Source of the DNA: Escherichia coli
GTDB lineage: Bacteria > Pseudomonadota > Gammaproteobacteria > Enterobacterales > Enterobacteriaceae
Strand: one strand, 5' to 3'
Assembly (NCBI RefSeq): GCF_045037415.1
Contig: NZ_CP173438.1
Length of the DNA: 64,000 nucleotides
Made by a program: the position numbers and the translations under genes. Shown piece by piece: positions 13,353 through 22,960 of the stretch. Under the pieces are notes generated by a model, which had not been told where the DNA came from, did no database searches, and saw only the letters and a list, made by a program, of their open reading frames with translations. Numbering within the stretch: position 1 is the first letter of the stretch; every line of letters starts with the position of its first letter.

Positions 13353-16102
<2,750 letters not shown>

Positions 16103-16105
16103 GGA

Positions 16106-16753
16106 ATGGGAGAGATGAACCATCAGGATGAATTGCCGTTAGCGAAAGTCAGCGAAATTGATGAGGCGAAGCGGCAATGGTTGCAGGGGATGCGTCACCC
16201 CGTTGATACGGTAACCGAACCAGAACCGGCTGAAATCCTGGCAGAGTTCATTCGCCAGCATTCTGCGGCTGGGCAGCTGGTGGCGCGCGCCGTGTTTCTC
16301 TCGCCACCCTATTCGGTTGCAGAAGAGGAACTGTCAGTTTTGCTGGAAAACATTAAGCAGAACGGAGACTACGCGGATATCGCTTGTATGACGGGAAGCC
16401 AGGATGATTACTATTACTCAACGCAGGCCATGAGTGAAAACTACGCGGCGATGTCTTTGCAAGTTGTGGAGCAGGACATTTGTCGCGCCATTGCACACGC
16501 CGTTCGTTTTGAGTGCCAGACGTATCCTCGTCCTTACAAAGTCGCCATGCTGATGCAAGCGCCATATTACTTCCAGGAAGCGCAGATTGAAGCCGCGATC
16601 GCCGCGATGGATGTTGCACCTGAATATGCCGATATACGGCAGGTGGAGTCATCGACGGCAGTGTTGTACTTGTTTAGCGAGCGATTTATGACCTATGGCA
16701 AGGCGTATGGCTTATGCGAATGGTTCGAGGTAGAGCAGTTTCAGAACCCCTGA
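16106..16753 (+). CDS. ydhW: protein YdhW (function unknown)
   Basis: 215 aa ORF in the conserved operon position. Confidence 0.85.
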   Translation: MGEMNHQDELPLAKVSEIDEAKRQWLQGMRHPVDTVTEPEPAEILAEFIRQHSAAGQLVARAVFLSPPYSVAEEELSVLLENIKQNGDYADIACMTGSQDDYYYSTQAMSENYAAMSLQVVEQDICRAIAHAVRFECQTYPRPYKVAMLMQAPYYFQEAQIEAAIAAMDVAPEYADIRQVESSTAVLYLFSERFMTYGKAYGLCEWFEVEQFQNP

Positions 16754-16816: not shown

Positions 16817-17485
16817 ATGTCCTTCACTCGACGCAAATTTGTTCTGGGGATGGGAACAGTAATCTTTTTTACTGGTTCTGCGTCTTCTCTGTTAGCGAAT
16901 ACGAGGCAAGAAAAGGAAGTTCGGTATGCCATGATTCATGACGAGTCACGGTGCAATGGCTGTAATATCTGCGCCCGCGCATGCCGTAAAACTAACCACG
17001 TCCCCGCTCAGGGAAGCCGTTTATCGATAGCACACATTCCAGTCATCGATAACGACAATGGAACGCAGTATCACTTTTTTCGTCAGTCATGTCAGCACTG
17101 CGAAGATGCTCCTTGCATCGACGTTTGCCCGACAGGGGCGTCGTGGCGTGATGAGCAGGGGATCGTGCGGGTAGAAAAATCGCAGTGCATCGGCTGCAGT
17201 TATTGCATTGGCGTTTGCCCGTACCAGGTTCGCTACCTTAACCCTGTCACTAAAGTGGCAGATAAATGTGATTTCTGCGCTGAGACCCGACTGGCAAAAG
17301 GCTTTCCGCCCATTTGCGTCAGTGCCTGCCCGGAACACGCATTGATCTTTGGTCACGAAGATAGCCCAGAAATTCAGGCGTGGTTGCAGGAAAATAAATA
17401 CTATCAATATCAGCTACCTGGCGCCGGGAAACCGCATCTGTATCGCCGGTTCGGTCAACATTTGATTAAAAAGGAAAATGTATGA
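16817..17485 (+). CDS. ydhX: 4Fe-4S ferredoxin-like protein YdhX with twin-arginine signal
   Basis: 222 aa from ATG at 16817; N-terminal TRRKFVLG Tat motif; four Cys clusters. Confidence 0.9.
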   Translation: MSFTRRKFVLGMGTVIFFTGSASSLLANTRQEKEVRYAMIHDESRCNGCNICARACRKTNHVPAQGSRLSIAHIPVIDNDNGTQYHFFRQSCQHCEDAPCIDVCPTGASWRDEQGIVRVEKSQCIGCSYCIGVCPYQVRYLNPVTKVADKCDFCAETRLAKGFPPICVSACPEHALIFGHEDSPEIQAWLQENKYYQYQLPGAGKPHLYRRFGQHLIKKENV

Positions 17486-18267
17486 ACCCGTCGCAACATG
17501 CTGAACAGTTTCAGAGCCAGTTGGCGAACTATGTGCCACAGTTCACCCCCCAATTTTGGCCGGTGTGGTTGATCATTGCCGGACTATTGCTGGTTGGGAT
17601 GTGGTTGGTGCTGGGGCTACATGCCTTGCTTCGTGCTCGTGGCGTGAAGAAATCAGCCACCGATCATAGTGAGAGGATTTATCTTTACAGCAAAGCGGTC
17701 AGATTATGGCACTGGTCGAATGCGTTACTCTTTGTATTGTTGCTGGCAAGTGGGCTGATAAATCACTTTGCGCTGGTGGGCGCAACTGCGGTTAAAAGTC
17801 TGGTTGCGGTGCATGAAGTTTGCGGATTTTTGTTACTGGCATGCTGGCTTGGCTTTGTTCTGATCAATGCCGTTGGGGGTAATGGTCACCACTATCGCAT
17901 TCGTCGTCAGGGTTGGCTGGATCGAGCGGCAAAACAAACGCGATTTTATTTGTTTGGCATTATGCAGGGGGAAGAACATCCTTTCCCGGCAACAACCCAG
18001 TCTAAATTTAATCCCTTACAGCAGGTCGCCTATGTTGGTGTCATGTATGGATTGTTGCCATTGTTACTATTGACGGGGCTGCTGTGTCTCTATCCGCAAG
18101 CCGTGGGAGATGTGTTTCCTGGCGTAAGATACTGGTTATTGCAGGCGCATTTTGCTCTGGCATTTATAAGCCTCTTTTTTATCTTCGGTCATCTTTATCT
18201 TTGCACCACGGGGCGTACGCCACACGAAACCTTTAAAAGCATGGTCGATGGCTATCACCGGCACTAA
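17482..18267 (+). CDS. ydhU: PhsC/NrfD-like membrane quinol-interacting subunit YdhU
   Basis: 261 aa polytopic membrane protein; 4-nt overlap with ydhX. Confidence 0.9.
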   Translation: MNPSQHAEQFQSQLANYVPQFTPQFWPVWLIIAGLLLVGMWLVLGLHALLRARGVKKSATDHSERIYLYSKAVRLWHWSNALLFVLLLASGLINHFALVGATAVKSLVAVHEVCGFLLLACWLGFVLINAVGGNGHHYRIRRQGWLDRAAKQTRFYLFGIMQGEEHPFPATTQSKFNPLQQVAYVGVMYGLLPLLLLTGLLCLYPQAVGDVFPGVRYWLLQAHFALAFISLFFIFGHLYLCTTGRTPHETFKSMVDGYHRH

Positions 18268-18270
18268 CGA

Positions 18271-19083
18271 ATGATCATTACACGAGCAGACCTGCGAGAA
18301 TGGCGTATCGGAGCGGTGATGTATCGCTGGTTTCTGCGCCATTTCCCACGTGGCGGTAGTTATGCCGATATTCATCATGCACTGATTGAGGAAGGATATA
18401 CGGACTGGGCGGAGAGTCTGGTTGAGTATGCGTGGAAAAAATGGCTGGCAGATGAAAACTTCGCGCATCAGGAAGTTTCCTCTATGCAAAAACTGGCCAC
18501 AGATCCCGGAGAACGACTATTTTGCAGTCAGTTTGTCCGCAGCGACGATCATGCTCGCCTCGGCTGTTGTGAGGATAACGCCAGAATCGCAACCGCTGGG
18601 TATGCCGCGCAAATTGCCAGTATGGGTTATAGCGTGCGGATTGGAAGTGTCGGCTTTAACAGTCACATTGGCAGCTCCGGTGCACGCGCACGGGTTGCTG
18701 TAACCGGTAATTCTTCGCGGATAAGCAGCGCTGGAGATAGCGGTCGGATTGCGAATACCGGAATGCGAGTACGCGTTTGTACATTGGGTGAACGGTGTCA
18801 TGTCGCCAGTAATGGTGACCTGGTGCAAATCGCCAGCTTTGGCGCAAACGCCAGAATTGCCAACAGCGGCGACAATGTACACATCATTGCCAGTGGTGAA
18901 AATTCAACGGTAGTGAGCACGGGCGTGGTCGACTCAATTATTCTCGGGCCAGGGGGATGCGCCGCACTGGCATATCATGACGGCGAAAGAGTTCGCTTCG
19001 CCGTCGCCATTGAAGGTGAAAACAATATTCGAGCCGGAGTCCGCTATCGTCTTAATGAACAACATCAGTTTGTTGAGTGCTGA
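18271..19083 (+). CDS. ydhT: protein YdhT (function unknown; internal 9-residue repeats)
   Basis: 270 aa; last gene of the ydhYVWXUT cluster. Confidence 0.88.
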   Translation: MIITRADLREWRIGAVMYRWFLRHFPRGGSYADIHHALIEEGYTDWAESLVEYAWKKWLADENFAHQEVSSMQKLATDPGERLFCSQFVRSDDHARLGCCEDNARIATAGYAAQIASMGYSVRIGSVGFNSHIGSSGARARVAVTGNSSRISSAGDSGRIANTGMRVRVCTLGERCHVASNGDLVQIASFGANARIANSGDNVHIIASGENSTVVSTGVVDSIILGPGGCAALAYHDGERVRFAVAIEGENNIRAGVRYRLNEQHQFVEC

Positions 19084-19094
19084 TAGCTTTACCT

Positions 19095-20699
19095 TTAATC
19101 AAACGAAAGACGCCGACGCGCACGGGATGCAGGTTTTACGACCGCCCGAGCCATCGCCTCTCCAATTTCTGCACATGCCGTAATTCCCTGAACGAAAGGC
19201 TGGTCGTGCATCAACCAGGGCAACGCGCCGAACGCTACGCGCCCACGAATATCTTCGGGTTGCTGTAACGTATAATCTTCGCCAACATTAGGGATTTCAT
19301 CCCCTGTTTTCTGTAATTGTTCGCGTAGTCCAGGGAAAGGAATATCTTTCACTTTAAGCGGACGCTGCCCGCGGGCATCAATAAAAACGTCAAACGAGTA
19401 GCTATTGTCTTCCGTTTTCAGGACGGTGCGCGACTCATTAATTTCCATTTCGTAGTCTTCACCGAGGGCGAGAATATGAATGATTCCCGCTTCACGTAAG
19501 GCCAGTAGTCGACGAATAGACTCTGAAGGGATTGCCGCATAATTATCGATGAAAACCCGGGCAAGGCCTTTACTGAACCGTTTATGGTCGTGTTCATTCA
19601 GATGTGGAACAATTTCCTGTACGGCTTCATGCAGGCGCAGAATGACATAACGCCAGGGAACAGTATGTTTTTCTCGTTTATTGCGTTCGACTTCCTGGAG
19701 ATTTTCTTCTGCCCAGTCAAATGGGTCGCGTTGTTTGCGCTCGGCAAACCAGGCTTGAGCAAAGGAATCGACATTCAGGCTCTCTAAGGCTATGCGTTGG
19801 CTCCAGTCTGGATCAGCAAACTTGATTTCCTCTACTATCAATCTAAATACCCGATCCAAAAGGCCCACTTCGCCTTTTTGAATCTCAGCATTTAATGCCT
19901 GATCGGTGATGATGTGTAAGGGCTCGTAGGGAATAGGGCAATAGAAATCGGCTTCGGGTAAAATACCTGTGCGCGACATTAACGTAATATTTAGCTTTTC
20001 ATTTGCGTTATCGCGGTGAAAAGTGACGTGTTGTTTATCATCTTCAATGAACGAACCATGCTGAATAGCCACTGCCATTGCCGCATCCAGTCCGCTCAAG
20101 GATGTTCCCATAATACCCACGTTACACGCATCGACCTTTGCTTCCATCAGGCCTGACCACGGGCTGGGAAAATACGTTCTGGTTGCTTCTTCTTCATCAG
20201 GCCAGACGTGCCCCGTTGCGATCACCGCTAAATCAAACGTCTCGCTGGGTAAATTCAGATTTGTAGCGAGCATGACGCCAGCATTTGTAATTTGCAGATC
20301 GGTAACCTGGCATGATTCATAAACAGCCACTGCAAATTTTTGCTGTCGTGCCTGGTCTACTAATCGTAAAAATTGATCGCGGAAATATTCGCCCAGCAGA
20401 ATTCGCGGTAAAAACTGACGATCGTGCAAGGTTTCTTTTTTAACGCCATAACGCTGGAGATGGCTGGCTTCTTGCTTTTGTAGCCATTCGAGATACGTGC
20501 AATAAATCGGCGGTATTTCAATACTGGCAATGTTTGCCAGCATCAGTTTTGAGTTTTCCTCATCACTGTATGGCATCCCGATACCGGCTTCGTCAGCCTG
20601 ATCGAAGATAGAAATAGAAAGTGGCGTTTGTTGCTGTAGAAGCGAGAATAAGGTGTAGATCCCCGTAGGCCCGGCACCCACAATAGCAATTGTTTTCAT
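19095..20699 (-). CDS. ydhS: FAD/NAD(P)-binding protein YdhS
   Basis: 534 aa; N-terminal Rossmann motif IAIVGAGPTG. Confidence 0.9.
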   Translation of the reverse strand: MKTIAIVGAGPTGIYTLFSLLQQQTPLSISIFDQADEAGIGMPYSDEENSKLMLANIASIEIPPIYCTYLEWLQKQEASHLQRYGVKKETLHDRQFLPRILLGEYFRDQFLRLVDQARQQKFAVAVYESCQVTDLQITNAGVMLATNLNLPSETFDLAVIATGHVWPDEEEATRTYFPSPWSGLMEAKVDACNVGIMGTSLSGLDAAMAVAIQHGSFIEDDKQHVTFHRDNANEKLNITLMSRTGILPEADFYCPIPYEPLHIITDQALNAEIQKGEVGLLDRVFRLIVEEIKFADPDWSQRIALESLNVDSFAQAWFAERKQRDPFDWAEENLQEVERNKREKHTVPWRYVILRLHEAVQEIVPHLNEHDHKRFSKGLARVFIDNYAAIPSESIRRLLALREAGIIHILALGEDYEMEINESRTVLKTEDNSYSFDVFIDARGQRPLKVKDIPFPGLREQLQKTGDEIPNVGEDYTLQQPEDIRGRVAFGALPWLMHDQPFVQGITACAEIGEAMARAVVKPASRARRRLSFD

Positions 20700-21238: not shown

Positions 21239-21315
21239 TGGTGCGTCCGAGTGGACTCGAACCACCGACCCCCACCATGTCAAGGTGGTGCTCTAACCAA
21301 CTGAGCTACGGACGC
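21239..21315 (-). tRNA. valV: tRNA-Val (anticodon GAC)
   Basis: Reverse complement reads GCGTCCGTAGCTCAGTTGGTTAGAGCACCACCTTGACATGGTGGGGGTCGGTGGTTCGAGTCCACTCGGACGCACCA; cloverleaf with encoded CCA. Confidence 0.95.
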
Positions 21316-21319
21316 AGGA

Positions 21320-21396
21320 TGGTGCGTTCAATTGGACTCGAACCAACGACCCCCACCATGTCAAGGTGGTGCTCTAACCAACTGAGCTATGAACGC
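21320..21396 (-). tRNA. valW: tRNA-Val (anticodon GAC), second copy
   Basis: Reverse complement reads GCGTTCATAGCTCAGTTGGTTAGAGCACCACCTTGACATGG...CCAATTGAACGCACCA; 4-nt spacer from the first copy. Confidence 0.95.
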
Positions 21397-21703: not shown

Positions 21704-22960
21704 ATGGGATCTGATGCGAAAAACTTGATGAGCGACGGGAACGTGCAAATTGTTAAGACCGGCGAGGTTATTGGCGCGACGCAACTTACTGAAGGCGAGT
21801 TGATTGTTGAAGCTGGCGGAAGAGCCGAAAATACCGTGGTCACGGGGGCTGGCTGGTTGAAAGTGGCAACCGGTGGGATAGCCAAATGCACACAGTACGG
21901 TAACAATGGCACACTATCGGTCAGCGACGGTGCCATTGCCACAGATATTGTTCAGTCCGAGGGAGGCGCAATTAGTCTCTCTACGCTCGCTACGGTTAAT
22001 GGCCGCCATCCCGAAGGTGAATTCAGCGTTGATAAAGGTTATGCCTGCGGTTTGTTGCTGGAAAATGGCGGTAACCTGCGTGTACTGGAAGGCCATCGCG
22101 CGGAAAAAATTATTCTCGATCAAGAGGGTGGCCTGTTGGTCAATGGGACAACCTCAGCGGTCGTGGTAGATGAAGGTGGTGAATTGTTGGTGTATCCAGG
22201 TGGGGAAGCCTGCAATTGTGAGATTAATCAGGGCGGCGTTTTTATGCTGGCGGGGAAAGCCAGTGATACGTTGCTTGCTGGTGGCACCATGAATAATCTC
22301 GGTGGTGAAGACTCTGACACTATTGTTGAGAATGGAGCCATCTATCGTCTGGGGACGGATGGTCTTCAGCTCTACAGTTCCGGTAAGACGCAAAACCTGT
22401 CCGTTAATGTGGGTGGTCGGGCTGAAGTGCATGCCGGTACGCTGGAAAATGCGGTAATACAAGGTGGGACAGTGATCCTGTTGTCACCCACCAGCGCGGA
22501 CGAAAATTTTGTCGTAGAGGAAGATCGCGCACCGGTTGAACTGACCGGTAGTGTTGCATTACTGGACGGCGCTTCAATGATTATTGGCTATGGCGCAGAT
22601 CTGCAACAATCAACGATTACTGTACAGCAGGGCGGTGTATTGATTCTCGACGGCAGTACGGTAAAAGGTGACAGTGTCACTTTTGGTATTGGTAACATCA
22701 ATCTAAATGGCGGAAAACTGTGGCTGATCACTGATGCGGCAACGCATGTGCAACTGAAAGTGAAACGCCTGCGCGGAGAGGGAGCCATTTGCCTGCAAAC
22801 CAGTGCGAAAGAAATTTCACCTGACTTCATCAATGTGAAAGGGGAAGTTACTGGTGATATACACGTTGAGATAACAGATGCCAGTCGGCAAACTCTGTGT
22901 AACGCACTGAAACTACAGCCAGACGAAGACGGGATTGGCGCAACGCTCCAGCCTGCGTAA
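21704..22960 (+). CDS. ydhQ: autotransporter-adhesin-related protein YdhQ (passenger-like, no beta-barrel)
   Basis: 418 aa, Gly/Thr/Val-rich beta-helix-like sequence. Confidence 0.88.
   Translation: MGSDAKNLMSDGNVQIVKTGEVIGATQLTEGELIVEAGGRAENTVVTGAGWLKVATGGIAKCTQYGNNGTLSVSDGAIATDIVQSEGGAISLSTLATVNGRHPEGEFSVDKGYACGLLLENGGNLRVLEGHRAEKIILDQEGGLLVNGTTSAVVVDEGGELLVYPGGEACNCEINQGGVFMLAGKASDTLLAGGTMNNLGGEDSDTIVENGAIYRLGTDGLQLYSSGKTQNLSVNVGGRAEVHAGTLENAVIQGGTVILLSPTSADENFVVEEDRAPVELTGSVALLDGASMIIGYGADLQQSTITVQQGGVLILDGSTVKGDSVTFGIGNINLNGGKLWLITDAATHVQLKVKRLRGEGAICLQTSAKEISPDFINVKGEVTGDIHVEITDASRQTLCNALKLQPDEDGIGATLQPA

Follow-up and report, generated by a model that had tools for sequence, protein, structure and literature searches.

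YdhT of Escherichia coli, a predicted nonapeptide-repeat beta-solenoid with phage relatives and a conserved place in the ydh operon

YdhT, the product of a core Escherichia coli gene, represents a new family of predicted beta-solenoids, a fold class that is well known, and it joins a helical N-terminal domain, an array of nine-residue units and a C-terminal beta module. In the 64,000-nucleotide stretch of E. coli DNA that we analysed (hereafter the window), the ydhT coding sequence lies at 18271-19083 on the plus strand (270 aa plus stop, from the list of open reading frames) and is the last gene of ydhYVWXUT. As a composite explanation of the evidence, we propose that YdhT may derive from a phage and serve the Ydh enzyme as an accessory factor that binds protein and has no redox role, a proposal that we give an even chance of being right. 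To our knowledge, E. coli has no AOR-type bis-MPT molybdoenzyme other than Ydh, and we know of no established substrate or assembly pathway for it. The findings on YdhT should be useful to those studying Ydh or phage early genes. For work on Ydh maturation they offer as handles a predicted solenoid adaptor that is capped, rigid and cofactor-free, a conserved unit-specific surface and a strict linkage to ydhYVWX, and the large family with swappable heads in phage early regions is a candidate for a new module of phage-host conflict. On neither count is current understanding overturned, and short-repeat beta-solenoids are a well-known fold class.

Nonamer array and predicted fold of YdhT

The open reading frame is 100% identical to RefSeq E. 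coli ydhT and scores 484.8 bits (E 7e-146) against NF007410, the NCBIfam equivalog for 'protein YdhT', with profile positions 1-269 of 269 covered and a curated cut-off of 300 bits. Of 5426 complete E. coli genomes, 5417 have a ydhT annotation. The first-pass annotation of this DNA had described about 12 tandem nonamers at 18570-18890. The ten units that it quoted were all found verbatim and in a single register, and the tandem array is real, but the count was too low. Fourteen in-register units with the consensus [IV]-[AG]-[ST]-x-G-x-x-[AVS]-[RHQ] occupy residues 97-222 (18559-18936, plus strand), and a degenerate first rung, FVRSDDHAR, precedes them at residues 88-96 (18532-18558), giving 14-15 units in all. 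The column profile of the array reads I/V - A/G - S/T/N - x - G - x - x - A/V/S - R/H/Q, with Gly at position 5 in 13 of the 14 units. The mean nucleotide identity between units is 43% (maximum 67%), and this low value indicates that the array is old and not the product of recent duplication.

Such a periodicity might be a compositional accident without a repetitive fold, given that YdhT is a low-complexity sequence rich in Gly, Ser and Ala, and that a marginal profile match to the disordered nonamers of the Spt5 CTR illustrates how bare period-9 matches can be spurious. We regard the chance of this as negligible, and the reading is already refuted by the shuffles, the glycine ladder of the orthologues and the fold model. 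Over residues 86-235, self-similarity (BLOSUM62, 500 shuffles) reached z = 10.5, 9.4, 10.1 and 8.3 at lags 9, 18, 27 and 36, and stayed at z <= 1 at every other lag from 1 to 39. The glycine ladder is invariant in orthologues, the period is shared by more than 100 family representatives, and the model has a pLDDT of 95.

We used a 71-sequence family alignment as AlphaFold2 input, and the resulting model of YdhT has a mean pLDDT of 95.2 and a pTM of 0.90. The beta-helix-type fold suggested at first pass is borne out by this prediction, which is a high-confidence beta-solenoid. Each nonamer from residue 87 to residue 216 contributes one short strand, with strand lengths alternating between 4 and 5, and the modelled coils are regular, with short parallel strands on one axis. 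On this model, we consider a beta-solenoid fold very probable. RTX coils are 18 residues long. Because the strand lengths alternate, the superposition on RTX is good and conservation alternates by unit, two nonamers would form each 18-residue coil of YdhT, in a two-sided solenoid of about 7-7.5 turns.

The array is flanked by folded parts on both sides. The N-terminal helical domain YdhT_N (residues 1-78; 18271-18504, plus strand) has five predicted helices at residues 5-77 with pLDDT 94-97. It is the only part of YdhT that Pfam covers (PF27195), and this assignment is precomputed on P0001, which is 97% identical to YdhT, on cluster representatives and on all orthologues; the fragment P0043, which keeps the repeats and the C-terminus and has no N-terminus, carries no PF27195. 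The variable linker that follows and includes the degenerate rung (residues 79-96; 18505-18558, plus strand) has the lowest pLDDT of the model (77-86) and the lowest conservation (0.46). Insertions of distant orthologues map to this linker, and its strand at 87-90 is already in the solenoid register. The C-terminal beta module (residues 223-270; 18937-19080, plus strand) reads ...LGPGGxAALAYHDGERxRFAVAxEGENxIRAGVxYRLNxxHQFVEC, is predicted as five strands at 220-269 with pLDDT 98, and has the highest conservation of YdhT (0.77).

On our reading, YdhT would be a soluble, cytoplasmic and cofactor-free protein that consists of a five-helix head, a rigid rod made up of 14-15 nonapeptide units and a small C-terminal module that closes the rod. 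The rod would be about 3.5 nm long, with about 7 turns. Repeat positions 1, 3 and 8 (I/V, S/T/N and A/V/S) would fill the core and Gly5 would form the turn, while positions 9, 2, 4, 6 and 7 would make up the surface, with position 9 as an Arg/His/Gln ladder. No signal peptide, Tat signal or transmembrane segment is visible in the YdhT sequence, and the protein is probably cytoplasmic.

Searches of PDB sequences with YdhT alone, and then with the family profile, returned nothing meaningful. Their only marginal match was the disordered Spt5 CTR, a likeness that we rejected as a coincidence of period. In the Pfam scan no curated repeat family matched the array, Curlin repeats included, and the matches to DUF6876 and MSSS were below threshold. 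We weighed whether YdhT could be an RTX-type calcium-binding beta-roll or a secreted solenoid of the ice-binding/adhesin type. RTX beta-rolls (GGxGxDxUx; CyaA RTX blocks 6sus and 9p6c) share its 9-residue tandem period and probably its 18-residue coil, and MpAFP RIV, LpIBP and RTX blocks are its best structural matches. Yet identity to these matches is about 10%, and the sequence has no GGxGxD: the glycine is single (97%) with no GG, Asp stands at position 6 in 30% of units, and the GG/Asp calcium turn is lacking. HemolysinCabind (PF00353, E <= 1) and other Pfam repeat families gave no match, no T1SS or autotransporter genes occur in the neighbourhood, and there is no signal peptide. The modelled YdhT solenoid resembles a two-sided beta-roll with folded domains capping both ends, unlike RTX, and its relatives are phage early proteins. 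Judged by these sequence features, an RTX or ice-binding identity would be highly surprising and is effectively refuted.

Other known solenoids differ from YdhT in comparable ways. Region IV of the Marinomonas primoryensis antifreeze protein (3p4g) and the ryegrass ice-binding protein (3ult), whose repeats are of about 19 and of 14-15 residues, respectively, are 10-18% identical to YdhT; they are extracellular and bind calcium or ice, neither of which is indicated for YdhT. Curli CsgA (8c50, 8enq) polymerises end to end outside the cell, whereas YdhT is capped at both ends and probably cytoplasmic. SufD/SufB (1vh4, 5awf) and NosD (7o0y) have a generic fold likeness to YdhT at 3-9% identity, but YdhT differs from them in coil type and lacks both a conserved Cys/His ligand and an ABC/ATPase partner. 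By analogy, these beta-helix accessory proteins may serve as functional precedents, as generic fold matches only. Three further candidates were rejected: bactofilin (DUF583), with no Pfam match and with the ends of the modelled YdhT solenoid capped by folded domains; pentapeptide or hexapeptide repeats, with no Pfam match and no self-similarity at lags 5, 6, 10, 12 and 20; and a collagen-like identity, with one Gly per 9 residues and no Gly-X-Y triplets.

Operon linkage and evolution of ydhT

According to RefSeq annotation of the identical locus, ydhT is the terminal gene of ydhY-V-W-X-U(phsC)-T. Transferred from that locus, the plus-strand coordinates are 13353-13979 for ydhY, 14000-16102 for ydhV (700 aa), 16115-16753 for ydhW, 16817-17485 for ydhX and 17482-18267 for ydhU. 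The mechanical open reading frame for ydhV (13916-16102, plus strand, 728 aa) overextends the annotated start at 14000 and overlaps the end of ydhY. At the ydhU/ydhT junction (18265-18273, plus strand), the sequence reads as the ydhU stop TAA, then CGA, then the ydhT ATG, a gap of 3 nt, and we looked for promoter-like and terminator-like sites at this junction and found none. Tight ydhU-ydhT spacing also occurs in most orthologous operons, and the two genes are probably co-transcribed and translationally coupled.

Downstream, ydhT converges with ydhS (19095-20699, minus strand), and 11 nt separate the two stop codons (19083-19095). No terminator-like hairpin lies between the two genes, the closest plus-strand terminator-like sites being at 19289-19306, within ydhS. 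The ydhS-ydhT pair is among the convergent 'excludons' supported by RNA-seq (PMC12288877). Farther along the window, two tandem tRNA-Val genes at about 21239-21396 (minus strand) are covered by a spurious 62-aa open reading frame. YdhQ (21704-22960, plus strand, 2.6 kb downstream) is an unrelated second beta-helix-type repeat protein, with 418 aa, imperfect Gly/Val-rich repeats and the annotation 'AIDA repeat-containing protein'.

To survey the operon, we scanned one genome per species with the YdhW alignment and obtained 36 loci, from Escherichia, Citrobacter, Limnobaculum, Leminorella, Budvicia, Brenneria and a Raoultella-labelled MAG, and the ydh gene order is kept in these 36 species loci. 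In every complete ydhW operon found, ydhT stands directly after ydhX or ydhU. This arrangement spans seven enterobacterial genera (Escherichia, Citrobacter, Limnobaculum, Leminorella, Budvicia, Brenneria and Edwardsiella), and the operon occurs in at least three different chromosomal neighbourhoods; in Brenneria salicis it adjoins glgP. Among the loci of the scan, every complete one has ydhT directly after ydhU, except where a contig ends (L020) and in one of two operon copies of Citrobacter sp. NCU1, with ydhT truncated to 38 aa. That strain has two ydhYVWXU operons (contig_21 and contig_92), one of which carries a 318-aa ydhT of 17 units while the frame of the other stops after 38 aa. In Edwardsiella tarda, ydhT follows ydhX, with ydhU absent and ydhW kept, and the operon adjoins the nap nitrate-reductase operon and a NarX/NarL-like two-component pair.

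In the genera other than Escherichia and Citrobacter, identity to the E. coli proteins is 80-91% for YdhV, 40-47% for YdhT and 44-60% for YdhW, and by these sequence comparisons YdhT is among the fastest-evolving members of the ydh operon. The periodicity holds in orthologues, where the Gly5 ladder is kept over 8-17 units. In an alignment of 11 full-length orthologues, 86-43% identical to E. coli YdhT, Gly5 is invariant at G110, 119, 128, ... 191 and 209 and near-invariant at G218. Across 37 operon-borne orthologues the ladder has 13-17 units, but 8 in Brenneria salicis. Purifying selection acts on all three parts of YdhT: dN/dS for ydhT was 0.06-0.16 in Escherichia pairs, with a median of 0.09 in Citrobacter, and the C-terminal module is the most constrained part (dN/dS 0.01-0.06). 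Whole units have dropped out, in frame, of rare E. coli alleles: exactly 8 in P0013 and 5 in P0034. In ydhT_1 of Serratia symbiotica, a 54-bp deletion, equal to two units, arose during experimental evolution (PMC12505973).

The units of the operon-borne array are individualised and conserved position by position across genera, as at Y111, N147-S148, M165-R166, D183 and D201, residues that may line a single edge of the rod. Surface conservation is biased to alternate units (0.74 versus 0.51, permutation p = 0.016, n = 14 units), and the lag-18 autocorrelation of the conservation residual is 0.17, so that the 18-residue periodicity of conservation is modest and no more than a hint. YdhT has a single near-invariant Cys, C230, and the main E. 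coli cluster has Ser in its place. We found no conserved Cys/His ligand, no metal or cofactor motif and no ferredoxin-type Pfam match in YdhT. With C230 replaced by Ser and no conserved ligand motif, the protein has no signature of an Fe-S or redox subunit.

Relatives of YdhT in phages

An exhaustive HMMER search returned 587 family clusters at 50% identity (E <= 1e-3), 204 of them with E <= 1e-10, and a word-indexed search returned only 46 close clusters. In 100 diverse representatives the ladder has 7-28 units with the consensus [IL]-[AG]-S-S-G-[DYN]-x-[AS]-[QKR], and most representatives end in the same C-terminal module (...W/Y-x-D-G-x-R...VGENGIK...Y-x-L-N..GEFVE). In sequence terms, this module is the hallmark common to YdhT and its phage relatives. 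The N-terminal heads differ among members and include YdhT_N, DUF7666, PcfJ-like, phrog_2072 and Macro. Family members match the PHROGs phrog_4433, phrog_18079 and phrog_27197, all of unknown function, and the C-terminal module of YdhT matches phrog_4433 and phrog_27197. The match of YdhT to phrog_4433 is weak (E 4.5e-6, residues 111-270, profile positions 156-310 of 312), whereas the relatives P0097 and P0074 match it strongly (E 1e-38 to 1e-47); YdhT may thus be counted as a weak member of phrog_4433.

In the annotated phage records and encoding contigs that we used, most sampled members lie in early regions of phages or integrative elements. Edwardsiella phage GF-2 gp55 (locus L012, 7001-8047) aligns over 100% of YdhT, YdhT_N included, at E 2e-50; in the early-left operon it comes directly after the N antiterminator gene, with cIII, erf and ssb farther downstream. 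Other members with the complete YdhT architecture are the copy in Komagataeibacter phage phiKX1, which follows the antirepressor, and metagenomic members, which have as neighbours a DnaG-type primase, an integrase, RecT and a repair exonuclease. No oxidoreductase was found near the phage early-region copies with full YdhT architecture. These phage relatives are genuine homologues that share the nonamer array and the C-terminal module, but compared with that of YdhT their arrays are longer and much less varied from unit to unit, their heads are often different, and they have no linkage to an oxidoreductase. The array of GF-2 gp55, for example, is near-homogeneous (IGSSGDRAR, IGSSGNDAR, IGSSGYYAQ), with about 24 units in total. 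We rejected the 'collagen-like' label that this protein carries, a periodic-glycine artefact, as its array has one Gly per 9 residues and not Gly-X-Y; no individual stretch of its Pfam Collagen match passes by itself. A weak homologue in Salmonella phage SEN22 is labelled 'c-type lectin precursor'.

In a tree built on the non-repeat parts (neighbour-joining, without bootstrap support), the operon-borne YdhTs form one clade, with GF-2 gp55, P0063 and P0067 as the nearest outgroup. From this sequence tree, a single capture of one phage-type lineage by the ydh operon appears likely. A deposited sequence that might have passed for a phage-borne ydhT, CP025887.1 ('Escherichia phage 503046', 23,083 bp), was rejected, as it looks like chromosomal DNA deposited as phage. 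This entry is unannotated, is labelled a complete phage genome and has ydhT at 18751-19560 with 97% protein identity.

One relative, P0091 (L051 / L052, 7001-8641), is a 546-aa protein that combines a DarG-like macrodomain, DUF7666, 22 nonamers and a YdhT-type C-terminal module. Its macrodomain matches DarG at E 2e-20, and it is encoded on a 67-kb contig that bears an integrase. These sequence features make P0091 a candidate for a protein with which phages counter DarT-type ADP-ribosylation. Its macrodomain gave the sole PADLOC match among the members scanned, which were YdhT, GF-2 gp55 and six others; the remaining five of those six had none, and neither had YdhT or GF-2 gp55. The literature that we searched on YdhT, DUF7666, PF27195 and nonapeptide beta-solenoids contains no description of the fold or the family, and it names YdhT solely as an operon product.

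Possible roles of YdhT

The first-pass annotation had suggested a solenoid scaffold or assembly factor for the oxidoreductase, a reasonable hypothesis with indirect support. We consider an accessory role for the Ydh enzyme a serious prospect, somewhat short of an even one. One lineage of the phage family would have entered the enterobacterial ydhYVWX(U) operon a single time and become fixed there as its last, co-transcribed gene. Rather than being a redox subunit, YdhT would then bind other proteins and so help to mature, assemble or stabilise the Ydh molybdo/Fe-S oxidoreductase. Such a role in maturation, assembly or stabilisation is favoured because of the strict operon linkage, the purifying selection and the individualised rod surface. 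The lack of a signal peptide, transmembrane segment or cofactor motif, together with the tight ydhU-ydhT junction, points to a soluble cytoplasmic adaptor that binds macromolecules, as do two properties of its neighbours: YdhX bears a twin-arginine leader, and YdhU is a membrane cytochrome b that serves as membrane anchor. Since the phage relatives, with an identical architecture that includes YdhT_N, work without a Ydh partner, the ancestral activity would have been unrelated to the enzyme. The fast divergence of YdhT next to YdhV, the rare E. coli alleles short of 5 or 8 units and the truncated ydhT of one Citrobacter operon copy also count against an accessory role. An extended form of this proposal, which we hold tentatively and consider rather doubtful, is that YdhT is a domesticated phage early protein built on a chassis of nonapeptide rod and C-terminal foot with swappable heads, re-purposed for Ydh maturation or assembly. 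Phages would mount YdhT_N, DUF7666, PcfJ-like or DarG-like macrodomain heads on it for host manipulation or counter-defence, and enterobacteria would have captured one copy once, the individualised rod surface of which would now serve Ydh, a Class V WOR molybdoenzyme.

Two other readings of the same evidence have to be weighed. YdhT could be a phage-derived passenger that merely rides the operon transcript and whose activity, unrelated to the oxidoreductase, lies in phage-host conflict (exclusion, decoy or counter-defence), of the kind suspected in the phage relatives. The location of most of the sampled family in early regions of phages and integrative elements fits this reading, and so does the DarG-like macrodomain head of one relative. 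Fast evolution, varying unit numbers, natural in-frame unit deletions with the 54-bp deletion in Serratia ydhT_1 (PMC12505973), and the truncated ydhT of the duplicated Citrobacter operon would also suit a passenger. It is harder to reconcile with the strict linkage to ydhYVWX through seven genera, several neighbourhoods and a tight junction, with purifying selection on all three parts, and with unit-specific conserved surfaces that the homogeneous phage arrays do not have; PADLOC gave no match for YdhT, and overall we think a passenger unlikely. Alternatively, YdhT could belong to the mature Ydh complex as a stoichiometric structural subunit, for instance in cytoplasmic docking or as a spacer. 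Reviews list 'YdhWXUT subunits' among the operon products (PMC13328260), ydhT co-occurs and is probably co-transcribed with the other ydh genes, and a rigid rod with conserved surface patches would be compatible with such a position. Yet the protein carries no cofactor motif, transmembrane segment or Tat signal, Edwardsiella retains ydhT without ydhU, and the divergence of YdhT is far above that of YdhV, YdhY or YdhX. A rod that varies from 8 to 17 units among orthologues is also hard to fit into a fixed structural position, and, according to a 2026 review (PMC13328260), the extra subunits of Class V WOR operons are different ones outside Enterobacterales. A structural subunit is, in our judgement, quite improbable.

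Two further ideas were set aside. An Fe-S scaffold by analogy with SufBD was rejected, no Cys/His being conserved in YdhT. The machine-learning link of ydhT to susceptibility to phage CBDS-07 came from a combined Salmonella and E. coli pangenome, in which ydhT is probably a species marker, and is uninformative.

As a partner test for the proposed accessory role, we modelled YdhT fused to YdhW through a (GGGGS)x6 linker. The fusion model had a pTM of 0.52, with both halves well folded and no confident relative placement. It lends no support to a YdhT-YdhW complex, a weak negative given the shallow alignment of 21 genome-paired sequences, a single partner and no PAE. YdhW itself (16115-16753, plus strand) had no match in the copies of Pfam, PHROG and PADLOC searched. 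In the fusion model, its residues from about 35 to 210 fold confidently (pLDDT about 87) and resemble two winged-helix-like modules. Foldseek against the PDB gave weak matches only for the YdhW half (SelB C-terminus at E 0.03, YceH and ESCRT-II), and its cysteines C123, C134 and C201 are invariant.
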